Shown here piece after piece: positions 58,100 to 64,000 of a stretch of DNA of 64,000 nt. The stretch lies in the NCBI RefSeq assembly GCF_024700885.2, contig NZ_CP117016.1, one strand, 5' to 3'. The notes under the pieces were generated by a model. It searched no databases. It was not told where the DNA came from and saw only the letters and a program-made list of their open reading frames with translations. The DNA comes from Escherichia coli. Lineage in GTDB: Bacteria > Pseudomonadota > Gammaproteobacteria > Enterobacterales > Enterobacteriaceae. The translations under genes were made by a program, and so were the position numbers. How positions within the stretch are numbered: the first letter of the stretch is position 1; the number at the start of each line of letters is the position of its first letter.

Positions 58100-58353
58100 T
58101 GGCTCGCATTACCCTGCGCATCACTGGCACACAACTGCTGTGCCAGGATGAACACCCTTCCCTTCTGGCGGCGCTGGAATCCCACAATGTGGCGGTTGAG
58201 TACCAGTGCCGCGAAGGTTACTGCGGTTCCTGTCGCACGCGCCTTGTTGCAGGCCAGGTGGACTGGATTGCCGAACCGTTAGCCTTTATTCAGCCGGGGG
58301 AAATTTTGCCTTGTTGTTGCCGGGCAAAAGGCGATATTGAAATCGAGTTGTGA
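58099..58353 (+). CDS. yfaE: 2Fe-2S ferredoxin YfaE (84 aa)
   Basis: Cysteine ligands CREGYCGSCR ... CCC; start overlaps nrdB stop. Confidence 0.9.
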   Translation: MARITLRITGTQLLCQDEHPSLLAALESHNVAVEYQCREGYCGSCRTRLVAGQVDWIAEPLAFIQPGEILPCCCRAKGDIEIEL

Positions 58354-58355
58354 TC

Positions 58356-58406
58356 GGGTACTAGCGCCAGATACGACGCTTACGCGTATTATCTGGCCTA
58401 CAACGA
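58356..58406. repeat. REP-like palindrome between yfaE and inaA
   Basis: gccagatacgacgcttacgcgtattatctggcctaca imperfect palindrome. Confidence 0.55.
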
Positions 58407-59057
58407 TTACATGGCGTAGTAATACGCTTTCACCTGCTCCCAGTCCGCTTTGGGGATCGGCTCCAGATATTTTTCCAGCTGGCGGAAGTCATGATTAATC
58501 GCTTTATCGCGACGCAAGCGGCGACGACTTTTCTCCAGATCAAGAAATCCAGCTTCTGCCTTACCTTCTGTTTTCACATAGATATGGCGAACATAGCAAC
58601 AGCCATGCTGACGATTAACGCTATGCATTTTCTTAAACGCCAGCGCCACTGCTTTCAACATGGCTTGCCGTACTTCGTCAGAATAGGGCGTTACTGCATG
58701 CCGGGCATACCAGTCAGCAATGCTGATGAACCCCGCCATATCTTCAGTCACCAGCAACGCGCGCCATTCCCCCTCAATTTTCACCGCTTCACCAAAAACA
58801 ATCTTCGGCACGATGACACCAGCCCGTTCCAGTTCTTTAATTACCGCAACCTCACGGACAATCGTTGGTCGGCCGAACGGATAACGTACGGAATGAAACA
58901 GATGATGCGTCATGCGCTTTACATATAGCTTTTTGCCGTTGCGCTCGACGCATTGCACCCCGCTCATACCATTACGGCGATAGTTAGGCTCTTCAACCCA
59001 GTCGCCCTCTGTTGCCCACCAGTGATTAAATTCGTCGTGCTTTGCTGAAACTGCCAT
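58407..59057 (-). CDS. inaA: Acid-inducible lipopolysaccharide kinase-like protein InaA (216 aa)
   Basis: Recognised sequence; position downstream of yfaE. Confidence 0.88.
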   Translation of the reverse strand: MAVSAKHDEFNHWWATEGDWVEEPNYRRNGMSGVQCVERNGKKLYVKRMTHHLFHSVRYPFGRPTIVREVAVIKELERAGVIVPKIVFGEAVKIEGEWRALLVTEDMAGFISIADWYARHAVTPYSDEVRQAMLKAVALAFKKMHSVNRQHGCCYVRHIYVKTEGKAEAGFLDLEKSRRRLRRDKAINHDFRQLEKYLEPIPKADWEQVKAYYYAM

Positions 59058-59137
59058 ACCCTATCGCCTGTCATTTTTTATTTACAACAATGACTATAGG
59101 TGGTTACCTGCGAAAAATCTGAATGAAACGTGTCGTA

Positions 59138-60328
59138 TTAATGAATTTCTTTTGCCACTACTAGCGCGACACCGCTTTTACCCTTCATTTGCAGCGCATA
59201 GACTCCACCAGCCACTACCACTAATAGTGCACCCAGCAGATAAATCATTCGGTAGCCAGTATGTGCAACCATCATCCCCATCACACAGGCTCCCAGCGCC
59301 AGGCCTGCATCCATCGCATTGAAGAAGAGGGAGTTTGCGACACCGATTTTATGCGGTTCCACTGAACTGATAATCTGCGTCTGAAAAACTGGCGTCACGG
59401 AACCATACCCGATACCAATCAATGCGCCAGAAACAACCATCATTATGCTTCCCTGGGTGTAGCCGAGAACCACCAGTCCTACCGTAAAGAACACAAGGCA
59501 AGGGTAAACCACATATTTCGGTCCTTTTTTGTCGCAGACATTGCCGGTAAAGGTACGGCAAATCATCAGGAAGATAGCGTAGCAAAGCAGGAAATTACTG
59601 GCTGCCGACATCAGGTTAAGTTCGCGTGCATAAAGCGCCAGAAAAGCAGAAACCCCGGCATACGAAAAGGTCATAAAAAAGGTGACCATCGCAAATGGCA
59701 ACGCCGCGCGATCGAACATGGCGGCGAAGCCCATTTTCGGCGTTGAACCATCAGCATGGCTGATAACCGGCGGCACTGTCATAATCAGCGACAGAATAAT
59801 CCCCACCGCTGCCACGCCGGTGCATAGCCAGAAAGCCAGATTAAAGGCTTCCCAGCGCGCCATATTCAGACCAATCCACGGCCCGACCACCATTGCCATC
59901 CCCATTGCCAGAGAGAAAAAACTGATGCCCTCCCCACGTCGGGAGGCCGGGATCAGCCGCGCGGAAATCGTTCCTTTTACCGTAGTGATAACCCCGAAGG
60001 TAATACCATGAAGCACCCGAATAAAAAGCAGTGATTCAATTGAGTGGCAAAAAGGATACAGCGCAGTGACCACCAAAAAGGCCAGAGAAGAGAGCCCCAG
60101 AATAGTTTTATTCGAATATTTACCTACCCATTGCCCGGCAAAGGGGCGAATAACAATGGCGGCAATTAAAAATAAAGTCACCAACAAACCTGCTTTATCA
60201 GGAGAGGCATGCAAGCGGTCTGAGATATAAATTGGCAACAATGTTAGTAAAACATAAAAGACGAAGAAAATAATAAAGCTGATGATGGTTATTGCCCAAA
60301 AATCCTTCGTCCATAACTTCTCTTTCAT
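59138..60328 (-). CDS. MFS transporter, 12-TM (396 aa)
   Basis: Hydrophobic segments throughout; MFS-type loop 2-3 motif (GQWVGKYSNK); divergent from the LysR gene. Confidence 0.8.
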   Translation of the reverse strand: MKEKLWTKDFWAITIISFIIFFVFYVLLTLLPIYISDRLHASPDKAGLLVTLFLIAAIVIRPFAGQWVGKYSNKTILGLSSLAFLVVTALYPFCHSIESLLFIRVLHGITFGVITTVKGTISARLIPASRRGEGISFFSLAMGMAMVVGPWIGLNMARWEAFNLAFWLCTGVAAVGIILSLIMTVPPVISHADGSTPKMGFAAMFDRAALPFAMVTFFMTFSYAGVSAFLALYARELNLMSAASNFLLCYAIFLMICRTFTGNVCDKKGPKYVVYPCLVFFTVGLVVLGYTQGSIMMVVSGALIGIGYGSVTPVFQTQIISSVEPHKIGVANSLFFNAMDAGLALGACVMGMMVAHTGYRMIYLLGALLVVVAGGVYALQMKGKSGVALVVAKEIH

Positions 60329-60479
60329 ACCCTACCGCCTGTCAGGATGACGCACGCAGACAACACTCCCGTTACTGCGGTTGCGTCAAATTGTGATGTA
60401 CTTTGCAGAACAGAAGTATAAATGGCGGCATGCTATTAGAGAAATTAATCGTTTTAATATTATTGATTAGCAAACTCTA

Positions 60480-61358
60480 ATGACTCTTACCCAAATAAAT
60501 TCTTTACTCGCCGTGCTGGATTACGGTGGCTTTACTGAAGCCAGCAAGCGATTGTTCATGACGCAGTCGGCGGTAAGTCAGGCAATTGCTGCCCTCGAAC
60601 AAGAACTTGGCGTGAGTATACTGTTACGCGATCGCCGTAAAGCTATACAACTGACCGCAGCAGGTCATCGCATTGTGCATCATCTGCGCGCCATTAATCG
60701 GGAAGTGAACGCAGTAAAAGAGATAGCCGAGCAGGAAAAGCAGAACCCTCAAAGAACGCTGAGACTTGGTTGTTTCCCCAGCGTCTGCGCCTGTATCTTA
60801 CCGGCTGTGATTCGCTACTTTGAAATTCATCATCCGAATATAAAAATTATTCCTTTTGAGGAAAATAGCACAGCGATTATTGATTCCCTTCAGAATGAAT
60901 CCATTGATGCCGGTTTTGTTCATTTTCCGGTGAGCGGAATGTACTCCGTGCCCATTTATCAGGATAAATTCACCGTAGTGTTACCGCCCAACCATGCTCT
61001 GGCAAAAAACAGCACTATTACAGTGGAAGAGTTAATGGGTGAACCATTAATTATTAGTAAAGGACGCTATGAATTAAGCATTATGGCACTATTTAAAGAA
61101 AAGAATATTACCCCACAGATAAAATATGAATTTAATCACCCTGATACAGCGATCAGTTTTATTCGACAGGGATTAGGCATCGCCTTATTACCAGAGTTAA
61201 CGCTGAAAACCATTGCAGATGAATTGTGTTCCGTTCCTCTCGAACCAACCTTCTATCGACAGATTTCGTTGCTGGCTAAAGAAAAGCCGGTAGAAGGCAG
61301 TCCACTGTTTTTACTGCAAATGTGTACGGAACAACTCGTGGTGAGTGGAAAAATTTGA
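60480..61358 (+). CDS. LysR-family transcriptional regulator (292 aa)
   Basis: N-terminal HTH (GGFTEASKRLFMTQSAVSQAIAALEQELGVSILLR) and LysR substrate-binding domain; ~150-bp divergent intergenic region shared with the MFS gene. Confidence 0.85.
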   Translation: MTLTQINSLLAVLDYGGFTEASKRLFMTQSAVSQAIAALEQELGVSILLRDRRKAIQLTAAGHRIVHHLRAINREVNAVKEIAEQEKQNPQRTLRLGCFPSVCACILPAVIRYFEIHHPNIKIIPFEENSTAIIDSLQNESIDAGFVHFPVSGMYSVPIYQDKFTVVLPPNHALAKNSTITVEELMGEPLIISKGRYELSIMALFKEKNITPQIKYEFNHPDTAISFIRQGLGIALLPELTLKTIADELCSVPLEPTFYRQISLLAKEKPVEGSPLFLLQMCTEQLVVSGKI

Positions 61359-61513
61359 TGTAAGACATGAGATTGATGACAAATGCAAGACTGCCTGATT
61401 CGCCACACTTAGTTGTACTATAGCCTTTACCAGGCGTAATAATTCGTTTTCACCTGATTTTGGCCCACTTTGTGAATTGGCGATATATATTTATCCAGTT
61501 GGGAGAAGTGACA

Positions 61514-61645
61514 ATGACTCCAGGTAGAAATCGGTATGAAGCGCCCGACTCACTGTCAAAACCGATCGTTGAGAGTAATGACACTCCGGCGAACAGTACA
61601 CAGTTTACTCTGGAGCCATTCTCAATCTTCAAGTGGGATACCTAG
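61514..61645 (+). CDS. Candidate small protein (43 aa), unknown function
   Basis: ATG at 61514 preceded by GGGAGAAG 7 nt upstream; MTPGRNRYEAPDSLSKPIVESNDTPANSTQFTLEPFSIFKWDT; no homolog recognised. Confidence 0.4.
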   Translation: MTPGRNRYEAPDSLSKPIVESNDTPANSTQFTLEPFSIFKWDT

Positions 61646-61823
61646 TAACTTTTCAGGGAAGTTATCAATATCTGTTTGTTACTTATTACCGTATTTATTA
61701 ACAATAATGATACTTTCTACCATGCGTAAAGGTCTTCGTAATAAAATGAGCTAAATTTGATAGTGAATATATTTTGCAAAGATTAGATTGTATCTTGTTA
61801 ACTCACAATACAAGGAATCATTT

Positions 61824-62894
61824 ATGCCAAATACATCTATTCACTTATCTCGCTGTAATATTTTACAAAATAATAAATTGCAACCAGCAGAAATTTACAA
61901 AGAATCACAACAAACCGCGAAACTTGAGTTTTTTTGCGATGAGTTTCTAAAAATATCTCAAAGTAGATACGGGTTATCAACTTCAGCAGACAGCATAGCT
62001 AATTTATTGGCTTTTTTCACGAAAGCCTCAGATGCAATTGATAGTATCAAGACCCAAAAAATTGACGTTCACAGTTATGGTTTCGTACCAATAAGACATT
62101 TTGTCGAACATGTCATAACGTATAAAAATGAATTTGCAGCGGATTATGAACCCTATACCCTTACCTTTACCCGAGGTGAAAACAACGAAGGTATTTTGAG
62201 TGTCGAAAGCAAAGAAGGGTTTATTTCACAAAGAACAATAAACTTAAATGAATATGAAACTGCAATTAACATCATCAATGAACATGTTATAAAAGAAAAT
62301 ATCCACAACACGGTCCAGTCACCGACAGAAAAAGACATTTCAAAAATAAACAGCTCTGATAAACCTTATAAAACCAGCAGTGAGGAAAGTATTAAAAGTC
62401 AACTTTACAGCGATCAAAAAAAATATACAGACCTGCTACTACATTCTGAGAAAAATACAGAATGGTACAAATACGCATCCTCCGTGGAACGCTATGATAA
62501 ATTCAAGAATTCTTCTAAGGAAATTAAAAATACCTACAAGCAAATTGTACAAGCGCAGAAAAAATTGAACCAAATGAAATACATCAATAAATTAAGTGGT
62601 GAGCTTATCGATATCGCCGACAAAAAGTTAGCACCATTAATAAATGATAGTTTCAGCTATACACGAGATTTCTTTGCTTACTCAAAACAGGAAAATAACA
62701 TCTTCACGTTTGATAATTCTAAGTTTGAAGATCCAAAGGAAAAAAAAGGTTTAATGGTACAACACAGCAATGGACAACTGGTTATTACTGGTGAATATTA
62801 TCCTGAAGGTGTGCAAATAGCATTCACTCAAGAACAATATAATAAATTAATAAGATACATTAATATTTTCTTTACTTTCCCGAAATGCGAATAA
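61824..62894 (+). CDS. Hypothetical protein (356 aa) in an AT-rich islet; no recognisable domain, no signal peptide or TM segment
   Basis: Long ORF (track 61788-62894); preferred start ATG 61824 with AAGGA SD 8 nt upstream; ~30% GC and Lys/Asn/Ser/Glu-rich composition unlike the flanking core genes. Confidence 0.65.
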   Translation: MPNTSIHLSRCNILQNNKLQPAEIYKESQQTAKLEFFCDEFLKISQSRYGLSTSADSIANLLAFFTKASDAIDSIKTQKIDVHSYGFVPIRHFVEHVITYKNEFAADYEPYTLTFTRGENNEGILSVESKEGFISQRTINLNEYETAINIINEHVIKENIHNTVQSPTEKDISKINSSDKPYKTSSEESIKSQLYSDQKKYTDLLLHSEKNTEWYKYASSVERYDKFKNSSKEIKNTYKQIVQAQKKLNQMKYINKLSGELIDIADKKLAPLINDSFSYTRDFFAYSKQENNIFTFDNSKFEDPKEKKGLMVQHSNGQLVITGEYYPEGVQIAFTQEQYNKLIRYINIFFTFPKCE

Positions 62895-63079
62895 TACTTT
62901 ACAGTATAAACTGCAATACAATTTATTATTGAACCCAATTCATACTGTTTAAGGAATAACAATGCCCAGTGTTAGCTTTCTTAACGAATGAGTTTTACGC
63001 AAATATGTTGGCATCTTTTTTAACAGGATGCACCGGTTAATGAATAGAACAACCGGAAGTAGCATTATTTCGCTTTAGC

Positions 63080-63108
63080 AGAGGATGGCGCATGAACGCC
63101 ATCCTGCA
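63080..63108. terminator. Hairpin terminator downstream of glpQ, possibly bidirectional
   Basis: AGGATGGCG-catgaa-CGCCATCCT stem-loop between the hypothetical CDS and the glpQ stop. Confidence 0.7.
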
Positions 63109-63114
63109 ATAGCA

Positions 63115-64000
63115 TTACTCTTTATTAAGGAATTTTACTGCCTTATCAGGGAAATCAGTAAACAGCCCATTTACACCCGCTTTGTTATACAGAGCATCAT
63201 ATAACTGATTCACATCAGTAGTGTATTCAGGCAGTTTATCTGACCGCACGGTATAAGGATGCACTGCCAGCTTGTTCTGCTGAGCATCTTGCACCATGCC
63301 AGTGAGTTTGATATTACCCGGCTGCGATGTCTCCTCAATCAACATATGGTAATCCGGACCAATACCATCTGCATATTCCGCCACCTGTTTCATGGCTCCC
63401 GGCTTAAACATCCAGTCGTAGTTGTAATTAATCCAGCTTCCGTCCGGCTGTTTCTGCTGCGTTTCATTCCAGTCGGTATAGGCAATCAGCTGTACCAGAT
63501 TGAGATCCATGCCCATTTTAGGTTCCAGCTCTTTCTTAATACGCTTCAGCTCATCAGCATCAAAACATTGCAAATAAACTTTATCGTCCTTACCGGTGTA
63601 ACCATATTTCTTCAGCACTTCCAGCGTTTTTGCCGCAATATCCTTCCCTTCCTGATGATGGAACCACGGCGCTTTAATTTCTGGATAGATACCGATATTT
63701 TTCCCGGTAGAGTGATTTAACCCCTGAACAAATTCAATCTCTTCTTCGAAAGTGTGTACCCGGAAGTCAGATTTACCCATCGGGAAACGGCCCGGATAAG
63801 TCTGTACTTTCTTACCGTTTTCAATATCGAAACCTTCGGTAAATTTCAGTGACTTAATTTCATCGAGCGTGAAATCTATCGCGTAGTAACGACCGTCTTT
63901 GCGCGCCCGATCCGGGAAACGATCGGCAACATCAGTAACACGATCGAGATAATGGTCATGCAGAACAACCAGATGGTCGTCTTTGGTCATCACCAAATCC
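63115..64000 (-). CDS. glpQ: Periplasmic glycerophosphodiester phosphodiesterase GlpQ, C-terminal ~294 codons; N-terminus beyond the window end
   Basis: MVMTKDDHLVVLHDHYLDRVTDV... GDPD-family sequence; reading frame open to the window edge. Confidence 0.88.
   Translation of the reverse strand, partial: DLVMTKDDHLVVLHDHYLDRVTDVADRFPDRARKDGRYYAIDFTLDEIKSLKFTEGFDIENGKKVQTYPGRFPMGKSDFRVHTFEEEIEFVQGLNHSTGKNIGIYPEIKAPWFHHQEGKDIAAKTLEVLKKYGYTGKDDKVYLQCFDADELKRIKKELEPKMGMDLNLVQLIAYTDWNETQQKQPDGSWINYNYDWMFKPGAMKQVAEYADGIGPDYHMLIEETSQPGNIKLTGMVQDAQQNKLAVHPYTVRSDKLPEYTTDVNQLYDALYNKAGVNGLFTDFPDKAVKFLNKE

Follow-up and report, generated by a model that had tools for sequence, protein, structure and literature searches.

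The divergent gene pair between inaA and glpQ, encoding a LysR-type regulator and a transporter of the major facilitator superfamily (MFS), is absent from Escherichia coli K-12 because a single deletion removed the 5' parts of both genes together with their entire control region. We consider it probable that the pair is an ancestral enterobacterial module, in which a LysR regulator would control, through an operator, a divergent 12-helix MFS transporter of the DHA1/YfcJ-YhhS-like kind that exports the ligand, and which K-12 has lost. In E. coli O157:H7, the pair itself is already catalogued as O-island 97 (z3494/z3495) and has been described as laterally acquired; the evidence collected here points to ancestry instead, and this reading is new.

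The gene pair and its loss from K-12

The preliminary description of the window, i.e. the whole 64-kb stretch of E. coli DNA analysed here, had placed an intact LysR gene (292 aa) and a divergent MFS gene (396 aa) between inaA and glpQ, and the open reading frames lie precisely where it put them (Table 1), flanked by nrdA-nrdB-yfaE-inaA and, at the opposite end, by glpQ. Its figures for composition were equally accurate, since the shared AT-rich control region, given as about 150 bp, measures 151 bp with 41.7% GC, and the roughly 43% GC estimated for 60481-60540 is 43.3%. The LysR gene has 43.5% GC and the MFS gene 48.4%, against 51.0% for the whole window. Both genes are under purifying selection (dN/dS range 0.036-0.127): the MFS gene gave a dN/dS of 0.058 against Salmonella, and the LysR gene gave 0.127 against O157 and a pN of 0.126 with saturated dS against Salmonella. 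The window strain also carries an extra 1.7-kb low-GC insertion between the LysR gene and glpQ, outside 59138-61358.

Table 1. Positions of the genes, deletion breakpoints and predicted regulatory elements in the window
Feature	Position	Strand	Description	Evidence
MFS transporter gene	59138-60328	-	396 aa, z3494 orthologue	ORF; PF07690 E=2.9e-58
Left CAGATAAA copy	59237-59244		8-bp direct repeat; left K-12 breakpoint, within MFS codons 362-364	junction alignment
Shared control region	60329-60479		151 bp, 41.7% GC	AT-rich; 23-taxon phylogenetic footprint
TTGTGA	60391-60396		in predicted MFS 5' leader; TGTGA core invariant	invariant alignment columns
Predicted MFS -10 hexamer TATACT	60415-60420	-	inferred transcription start near 60408	footprint alignment
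Conserved block ATTAGAGAAATTAATCGTTTTAAT	60435-60458		two overlapping T-N11-A dyads; predicted LysR activation-binding sites, ~-34 and ~-43	nearly invariant, 23 taxa
Dyad ATTAG-N6-CTAAT over LysR start codon	60466-60481		predicted recognition-binding and autoregulation site, ~-65.5 from inferred MFS start	half-sites kept, 23 taxa
LysR-type regulator gene	60480-61358	+	292 aa, z3495 orthologue	ORF; HTH_1 + LysR_substrate
Right CAGATAAA copy	61116-61123		right K-12 breakpoint, LysR codon 213	junction alignment
yfaH-equivalent segment	61152-61358	+	LysR residues 225-292	NF007272 match; MG1655 yfaH 207 bp

The initial statement that K-12 carries only a LysR pseudogene fragment, yfaH, proved correct for MG1655. 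Its inaA-glpQ interval, when searched for an intact pair, contained none; it holds the C-terminal fragment yfaH (b2238, 207 bp) and a transporter remnant marked in RefSeq, where 105 bp are annotated for the transporter 3' end. As a deletion remnant equivalent to residues 225-292 of the window regulator, yfaH is without the DNA-binding domain and the greater part of the effector domain, whereas the window gene is whole. Indeed, the 68-aa NCBIfam model NF007272, presumably the YfaH model, matched LysR residues 226-292 (E=4e-43), and the codon of Ile225 is ATC in the window strain versus ATG in K-12. Alignment to K-12, which had been suggested for defining the deletion boundaries, put the two breakpoints at copies of CAGATAAA, with 1,879 bp deleted, and the remnants left in K-12 measure 107 bp for the transporter gene and 243 bp for the regulator gene, the latter including yfaH. 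In the papers found to mention yfaH, it serves solely as a neutral marker site.

We then scored 5,426 complete E. coli genomes, counting a genome as keeping the pair when at least 80% of it was present. As a result, 1,215 (22%) kept the pair, 3,132 (58%) carried the identical K-12-type junction, and 1,060 (20%) gave no match. Since the 3,132 genomes hold both remnants and share one identical junction, their ancestor had the pair. Genomes without the pair carry a 71-bp filler at the locus, which resembles neither the pair nor the low-GC insertion.

Ancestry of the locus and the shared control region

The pair was found to be syntenic well beyond E. coli, an answer to the question of its phylogenetic distribution raised in the preliminary description. 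MFS orthologues are 79-96% identical in 10 genera, and a divergent LysR orthologue (62-96%) stands beside the MFS orthologue at all 24 of the Enterobacterales loci. On the MFS side, yfaE is present at 21 of the 23 Enterobacteriaceae loci, accompanied by nrdB at 20, and the other two end short of the yfaE position; in Leminorella, the pair occupies another site. Since the pair thus lies beside yfaE-nrdB across nine Enterobacteriaceae genera, including Escherichia, Salmonella, Citrobacter, Kluyvera and Klebsiella, we take it to be ancestral and lost by K-12, and its moderately low GC is no sign of recent acquisition. Escherichia whittamii and two further Escherichia species also carry it at the same site.

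The nearest non-enterobacterial relatives of the MFS protein are in Firmicutes, at 55% identity in Desulfosporosinus and Bacillus sp. EB600, with more distant relatives (30-37%) in Neobacillus and Paenibacillus. Neobacillus carries a pair, with 33-34% identity for MFS and 35-37% for LysR. Where the MFS protein is 55% identical, its LysR partner reaches just 24-25%, and no substrate clue therefore transfers from these loci. The gene neighbours in Paenibacillus, Desulfosporosinus, Bacillus sp. EB600, Neobacillus and Leminorella, compared for a conserved substrate clue, differ everywhere, and a search for conserved catabolic genes beside the pair found none in any lineage examined.

A phylogenetic footprint of the control region newly revealed a 47-bp operator-like block, 60435-60481, that is near-invariant in 23 taxa. 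The block has 19% GC, abuts the LysR start codon, and is separated from the MFS start codon by 107-153 bp. It contains the dyads ATTA-N7-TAAT, centred at 60442, and ATTAA-N5-TTAAT, centred at 60451, both within ATTAGAGAAATTAATCGTTTTAAT, which has a weight-matrix self score of 42.4, whereas no unrelated site in the window scores above 11.5. Furthermore, the ATTAG-N6-CTAAT dyad is unique in the window, with 0.06 occurrences expected by chance.

On the MFS strand, a -10 pattern TAnnnT is kept at a fixed spacing from the conserved block. In the alignment, read by eye, position 2 is A and position 6 is T in 22 of the 23 rows, the Pseudocitrobacter row being ambiguous, and the middle bases vary (TATACT, TATAAT, TATTAT, TATCAT, TATGAT, TAGAAT, GATACT, TACACT). 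Since a simple sigma-70 promoter scan of the intergenic region called no promoter, the proposed MFS one included, the proposal of this -10 is founded on the footprint. Beyond it, the MFS leader shows indels of up to about 56 bp among the footprint taxa. We also looked for the promoter and Shine-Dalgarno sequence of the regulator gene itself and identified neither. The TGTGA of the leader was considered as a CRP half-site and rejected, as the second half-site is not conserved, and a riboswitch or known RNA in the leader was likewise dismissed, with no Rfam match above threshold and a non-significant fold z of -1.31.

In the textbook LysR geometry, a recognition site lies near -65 and an activation site near -35. 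Relative to the predicted -10, the -65/-43/-34 arrangement matches this geometry. In the canonical divergent modules BenM-benA and CbnR-cbnA, the regulator has the same domain architecture and a divergent target as here, and their T-N11-A dyads near -65 and at about -35 to -45 have counterparts in the window with respect to the predicted target promoter.

The regulator, the transporter and the proposed mechanism

The regulator matched PF00126 (HTH_1) at residues 3-63 (E=2.5e-18, 66.2 bits versus a cut-off of 26.6) and PF03466 (LysR_substrate) at residues 88-267 of the 292-aa protein (E=5.1e-37). Its best solved relatives include CysB (E=7e-22), BenM (E=6e-20) and OxyR. The best full-length match among NCBIfam models was the Gram-positive GltC, which at 128.6 bits fell short of the cut-off of 350.

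The transporter matched the PF07690 MFS_1 profile at 197.9 bits. The 12 transmembrane helices initially ascribed to it are consistent with the hydropathy profile, in which 11 strong segments and a weaker amphipathic helix 11 (approximately residues 327-353, read by eye) fit a 6+6 topology with a central loop at residues 183-207. Among solved structures, the efflux pump NorA is the best relative (E=1.8e-13), with the N-terminal half aligning to it, followed by the sugar efflux transporter of PDB 6kki. The antiporter motif C in TM5 has the form G-x-x-x-G-P-x-x-G-G. In the window transporter, TM5 (AMVVGPWIGLNM) aligned to GFILGPGIGGFM of NorA, with GPWIG versus the antiporter-motif GPGIG, so that G-P-x-I-G is kept and Leu replaces the second Gly of the GG pair. 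Motif A, with the consensus G-x-x-x-D-(R/K)-x-G-(R/K)-(R/K) in loop 2-3 and/or loop 8-9, is degenerate in loop 2-3 (GQWVGKYSNK, Gly in place of Asp) and agrees with the consensus in loop 8-9 (GNVCDKKGPK).

The best NCBIfam matches of the transporter were PRK05122, which we take to be a YfcJ-like model, the PRK12382 'arabinose transporter' model, and the staphylopine exporter CntE. The scores missed the subfamily cut-offs, with 109.6 versus 374 bits for YfcJ-like NF003477 and 85.3 versus 364 for YhhS-like NF009048, and the search of NCBIfam with both proteins brought no named subfamily or equivalog to its cut-off. E. coli YhhS is 24% identical to the window transporter, and YfcJ aligns only in part. 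The 12-helix MFS_1 fold is common to the transporter, the DHA1/YfcJ-YhhS-like exporters, NorA and CntE. Judged by its sequence, the transporter is predicted to work like the DHA1/YfcJ-YhhS-like exporters, yet is a member of neither named subfamily; it is a probable exporter, the direction being suggested by the motif and the family resemblance.

In the mechanism that we propose, the regulator would bind the conserved 47-bp AT-rich predicted operator, with the recognition dyad near -65 and the two overlapping T-N11-A dyads near -43 and -34. The recognition dyad overlaps the regulator's own start codon, so that autorepression would be implied. With a small-molecule ligand bound, the regulator would activate the MFS promoter (-10 TATACT), and the transporter would most likely act as a proton antiporter that exports this ligand or a compound related to it. 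The pair had been called a classic LysR-regulated transporter module, and the conserved predicted operator, together with the strict co-occurrence of the genes in 24 of 24 Enterobacterales genomes, speaks for that designation.

O-island 97 and the competing interpretations

O-island 97 was described as a 2,006-bp region, missing from K-12, that encodes an MFS protein together with a LysR-type regulator (Wang et al. 2024, Microorganisms 12:140, PMC10819331). In EDL933 it occupies the same inaA-glpQ position, and its MFS and LysR proteins are 98% and 99% identical to those of the window; the z3495 cloning primer of that study, ATGACTCTTACCCAAATAAATTCT, equals window positions 60480-60503, and its knockout primer equals 60442-60481. 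The window differs in coming from a non-O157 strain and is 100% identical to canine isolate 1190, and the synonymous divergence of its MFS allele from that of O157 is about four times that of the flanking genes. According to the same study, z3494 has a CDD 'MFS_YfcJ' match and its deletion gave no phenotype, whereas Z3495 promotes LEE expression and gut colonisation in O157:H7 and raises rcsF expression as well (PMC10819331). A literature search with the Salmonella locus tags STM2280 and STM2281 gave no match.

The published interpretation is that of a laterally acquired island, gained independently by pathogenic E. coli, whose regulator acts mainly in virulence through rcsF and LEE with the transporter as a passenger. 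It draws on the lower LEE transcription, weaker adherence to HeLa cells and poorer colonisation of mice reported for the z3495 deletion strain, along with complementation, on EMSA and ChIP-qPCR at the promoter of rcsF, the gene to which the effect of Z3495 is attributed, and on a patchy distribution in E. coli (PMC10819331), and the 43.5% GC of the LysR gene, below the genome average of 51%, would also suit it. We nevertheless hold it to be improbable. The yfaE-nrdB synteny is common to nine Enterobacteriaceae genera and other Escherichia species also have the pair; 3,132 E. coli genomes hold both remnants with one identical junction; and the window strain is a canine isolate. Furthermore, when the EMSA fragment of the rcsF promoter was searched for an operator-like site, in both the K-12 and O157 sequences, none was found, and the best weight-matrix scores in the O157 fragment (-3.7, 0.4 and 1.4, versus self scores of 42.4, 27.4 and 19.4) are about the chance level for 600 positions. 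The published ChIP-seq gave weak peaks, with a log2 enrichment of 1.17-1.8, for the most part on highly expressed genes, and their coordinates fit MG1655, not O157, since glpA and yafT agree and none exceeds 4.47 Mb; the regulator's own locus may therefore not have been scorable. We regard the activation of rcsF and LEE as a secondary or indirect output, not the conserved function of the module.

Within an ancestral module, the transporter could still take up a nutrient or signal by proton symport, with the LysR protein sensing the imported compound and inducing uptake. LysR regulators are frequent activators of uptake and catabolic genes, symporters are numerous in MFS_1, the transporter weakly matched models of symporters for aromatic acids, galactonate and lactate, and motif A is degenerate in loop 2-3. 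However, none of the lineages examined has a conserved catabolic enzyme next to the pair, the strongest relatives are exporters (NorA, 6kki, CntE and the PRK05122/PRK12382 models), and TM5 retains the GP-x-x-G part of the antiporter motif, so that import seems to us unlikely, albeit a real contender. The two genes might also be mere neighbours, the block serving only LysR autoregulation or another protein such as H-NS, with the transporter controlled independently. The position of the block, abutting the LysR start codon and 107-153 bp from that of the MFS gene, and its 19% GC, typical for H-NS-bound DNA, would be compatible with this. Such independence is hard to credit, as all 24 genomes have both genes in divergent orientation, the conservation is position-specific and dyad-symmetric with T-N11-A spacing, i.e. 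more than AT-richness, and the spacing between the block and the MFS-strand -10 is constant, in contrast to the variable leader that follows.

A bolder history would be that of an old module, possibly of Firmicute origin, whose housekeeping regulator locally controls the adjacent exporter via a 47-bp operator kept since the Enterobacteriaceae ancestor. Most E. coli lineages, including K-12, would have lost it by two different deletions, and the virulence effect in O157:H7 would be a side-effect of this presence/absence polymorphism, not of a new island. We advance this complete account tentatively, at slightly less than an even chance.

The value as a discovery is small, because both genes carry RefSeq annotation, the locus already figures as an O157-specific island, and a 2024 paper is devoted to the regulator. 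The conserved predicted operator and predicted promoter nonetheless offer a cheap and concrete test of the regulator's cognate target, which may have escaped the published ChIP-seq, and the three-state polymorphism in E. coli (22% intact, 58% K-12-type scar, 20% absent) is a natural knockout series for those seeking the substrate. An ancestral origin alters the reading of the published "laterally acquired virulence regulator", and the locus shows that an "O island" can be merely a K-12 deletion of ancestral DNA.

An intact divergent pair and its remnant in K-12

The preliminary description had placed an intact, divergently transcribed MFS transporter and LysR-type regulator where K-12 carries the remnant yfaH. 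The ORF list and Pfam searches recovered both genes at the claimed lengths and coordinates, and the spacer between them agrees with the AT-rich shared region of about 150 bp described there (see table). A hydropathy scan of the transporter found 11 strong transmembrane segments and a central loop, and a weaker, amphipathic twelfth segment was read by eye, in line with the 12 proposed. The 60 bases sampled for GC, put at about 43%, measured 43.3%; the transporter gene has 48.4% GC, the regulator gene 43.5% and the whole window 51.0%. The pair lies between nrdA-nrdB-yfaE-inaA and glpQ, and the canine isolate E. coli 1190 matches positions 58300-64000 at 100% identity. Purifying selection acts on both genes of the pair, with dN/dS values of 0.058 (versus Salmonella) and 0.036 (versus O157) for the transporter and 0.127 (versus O157) for the regulator. 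The synonymous divergence of the MFS gene from O157:H7 (59138-60328 versus 1339-2529 of locus L009; dS 0.185) is about fourfold that seen in the neighbouring LysR gene (0.047) and inaA (0.044), suggesting allelic mosaicism or recombination within the locus. Between yfaE and inaA, the Rfam model naRNA4 (REP-type element) matched 58323-58398 at 28.9 bits, below its gathering score of 59.5.

The pair corresponds to O-island 97 (OI-97) of O157:H7, a 2,006-bp region without a counterpart in K-12 that comprises z3494 (MFS gene) and z3495 (LysR-type regulator gene) (Wang et al. 2024, PMC10819331). The window genes are 98% (MFS) and 99% (LysR) identical to the O157:H7 genes at the same position. Furthermore, the z3495 cloning primer of that study equals window 60480-60503, its z3495 knockout homology arm equals 60442-60481, and its OI-97 knockout arm corresponds to the sequence left of the K-12 junction, with one mismatch to window 59205-59244.

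In MG1655, the inaA-glpQ interval holds the pseudogene yfaH (b2238, 207 bp) alone and no identical intact pair, while the RefSeq annotation of a second K-12 record gives a 105-bp C-terminal "hypothetical protein" fragment beside a 243-bp LysR fragment. Alignment of K-12 to the window resolved a single deletion of 1,879 bp, with the left flank matched to 59244, the right flank from 61116, and both breakpoints in an 8-bp direct repeat. Lost with it were the first ~362 transporter codons, all of the control region and regulator codons 1-212. Since this one deletion leaves yfaH, both the description of yfaH as a remnant and its interpretation were correct. The yfaH ORF starts at a K-12-specific ATG, at the position of Ile225 in the window strain, and the 68-aa NCBIfam model NF007272 aligns with the intact regulator over residues 226-292 (E=4e-43).

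Coordinates of the gene pair, the deletion repeats and the control-region elements
Feature	Position	Strand	Sequence or size	Basis or remark
MFS transporter ORF	59138-60328	minus	396 aa	ORF list; Pfam MFS_1, E=2.9e-58
LysR-type regulator ORF	60480-61358	plus	292 aa	ORF list; Pfam HTH_1, E=2.5e-18, and LysR_substrate, E=5.1e-37
Spacer between the two ORFs			151 bp	41.7% GC
Direct repeat at both deletion breakpoints	59237-59244 and 61116-61123		CAGATAAA (8 bp)	K-12/window alignment
Predicted -10 element (E. coli)	60420 down to 60415	minus (transporter strand)	TATACT	23-taxon footprint
Conserved block, first part	60435-60458		ATTAG-nn-AAATTAATC-n-T-n-TTAAT	23-taxon footprint
Conserved block, ATTAG	60466-60470		ATTAG	23-taxon footprint
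Conserved block, CTAATG	60477-60482		CTAATG	Ends in regulator start codon
Dyad	centre 60442		ATTA-N7-TAAT	
Dyad	centre 60451		ATTAA-N5-TTAAT	T-N11-A box
Dyad	centre 60473.5		ATTAG-N6-CTAAT	Single occurrence in the 64-kb window; 0.06 expected by chance

Distribution and history of the locus

We surveyed 5,426 complete E. coli genomes, counting the pair as present at ≥80%, and found it in 1,215 (22%); the exact K-12 junction occurs in 3,132 (58%), and 1,060 (20%) lack any match to the pair. Strain EC28, a representative of this empty class, has 71 bp of unrelated filler between inaA and glpQ, and only ~19 bp of the transporter 3' end is recognisable. A scan outside E. coli, with one genome per species, detected transporter orthologues of 79-96% identity in three further Escherichia species and in Salmonella, Citrobacter, Kluyvera, Klebsiella, Pseudocitrobacter, Superficieibacter, Phytobacter, Pluralibacter and Leminorella. 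The divergent neighbour is a regulator orthologue (62-96% identity) in all 24 loci, and yfaE lies on the transporter side in 21 of the 23 Enterobacteriaceae loci, that is, wherever the fetched sequence extends that far, usually with nrdB next. Among the fetched loci, inaA separates yfaE from the transporter in Escherichia and Pseudocitrobacter only. The simplest history is an ancestral pair at this site followed by two or more independent losses within E. coli, so that the "O island" reflects a deletion in K-12 and not a gain by O157.

The next closest transporter relatives are Firmicute proteins: those of Desulfosporosinus and Bacillus sp. EB600 share 55% identity with the window transporter, and those of Neobacillus, Paenibacillus and others 30-37%. 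The Neobacillus gene has a divergent LysR neighbour 35-37% identical to the window regulator, which hints that the LysR/MFS module has an old inter-phylum origin; next to the 55% relatives, regulator identity is just 24-25%. The transporter N-terminus MKEKLWTKD(F/Y) (window 60302-60328) is kept in three Firmicute homologues (L038, L039 and L041) of 33-55% overall identity. A 3.5-kb contig of a Collinsella sp. MAG (L040) shares 98-99% identity with the LysR, MFS and orphan genes of E. coli and almost certainly entered that bin as E. coli contamination.

This orphan gene, a 356-aa ORF (61824-62894), lies in a 1,711-bp insertion of 33.9% GC at 61371-63081; the insertion follows the LysR stop codon, precedes the terminator hairpin of glpQ and is missing from K-12 and strain AR_0006. 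Searches of Pfam, NCBIfam and PHROG found no match for the ORF, and its homologues are named from E. coli only; its O157 counterpart shares 93% identity and has a local frame-shifted patch (residues 199-210). Since the insertion accompanies the intact pair in some genomes and the K-12-type deletion in others, it is an event independent of the pair's deletion. Its left end carries the 3'-end remnant of a diverged second inaA-like gene (61427-61509, minus strand; terminus ...FSQLDKYISPIHKVGQNQVKTNYYAW*), with 73% DNA identity to the InaA 191-215 segment and 56% protein identity across 25 residues, suggesting that the insertion brought along part of the surroundings of a foreign inaA.

Control region and direction of transport

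Footprinting of the control region across 23 taxa showed a variable MFS-side leader, with indels of up to ~56 bp, and an almost invariant 47-bp block adjoining the regulator gene. A weight matrix built from this block gave self scores of 42.4 and 19.4; unrelated sites in the window reached ~12 at best. On the transporter strand, 14 bases from the block, a TAnnnT hexamer is kept in all taxa but one with varying middle bases, which is the signature of a -10 element, here predicted; a simple consensus scan of the control region called no promoter. Transporter transcription would then start at ~60408, placing the three dyad centres at -34, -43 and -65.5. LysR-type regulators typically have activation and recognition sites as dyads near -34/-43 and -65, respectively. 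The -65 dyad is accordingly laid out as the predicted recognition site, and the -43/-34 dyads as predicted activation sites. Overlap between the -65 dyad and the start of the regulator gene would imply autorepression of that gene.

Within the predicted MFS 5' leader, TTGTGA (60391-60396) has a TGTGA core invariant in 23/23 taxa of an otherwise variable leader; it was rejected as a CRP-type site, as the footprint does not place it in a conserved dyad. Two Citrobacter genomes (L017 and L019) carry an extra ~56-bp insertion, possibly a small repeat element, between TGTGA and the predicted -10 (columns ~149-204 of the control-region alignment).

The best solved relative of the transporter is the NorA efflux pump (E=1.8e-13), whose GPGIG aligns with the TM5 motif GPWIG, and the second is a sugar efflux transporter (PDB 6kki). 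The top NCBIfam matches, all far below cut-offs, were PRK05122 (taken here as the YfcJ-like model), PRK12382 ("arabinose transporter") and CntE, an exporter; the protein shares 24% identity with K-12 YhhS. A conserved catabolic gene beside the pair was found in none of the enterobacterial or distant loci examined. Because of the exporter-like relatives, the TM5 alignment and this lack of a catabolic neighbour, we favour, with moderate confidence, a ligand-induced exporter over an importer, a reading we regard as rather unlikely.

The published regulon and the standing of the locus

Loss of z3495, but not of z3494, is reported to reduce LEE transcription, adherence to HeLa cells and colonisation of mice; Z3495 is further reported to bind the rcsF promoter, and the regulator was termed laterally acquired (PMC10819331). 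Our weight matrix found no operator-like site in the O157 rcsF EMSA fragment, where scores are at chance level for ~600 positions. Enrichment at the 97 Z3495 ChIP-seq peaks is weak, at log2 values of 1.17-1.8 (2.2- to 3.5-fold; PMC10819331, Supplementary Table S4), and in that table the peaks fall mostly on highly expressed genes (for example those for ribosomal proteins, ompA, ompC, groL and clpB). The reads were mapped to O157:H7 according to the text (PMC10819331); the peak coordinates fit MG1655 and not O157. The glpA peak (2,352,683-2,353,187) falls within MG1655 glpA (2,352,647-2,354,275), the yafT peak is at 237 kb versus 241 kb for Sakai yafT, and the highest coordinate is ≤4.47 Mb versus ~5.5-Mb O157 chromosomes. 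If the reference was K-12-like, the intergenic region beside the regulator gene itself would be undetectable in that experiment. These caveats on the rcsF fragment and the ChIP-seq do not disprove the phenotypes reported for z3495.

The window locus is thus a further copy of a catalogued locus, real, ordinary and already known, to which the present analysis adds the precise mechanism of the deletion, frequencies in the population, evidence that the pair is ancestral and not acquired, and an operator and promoter model open to test.
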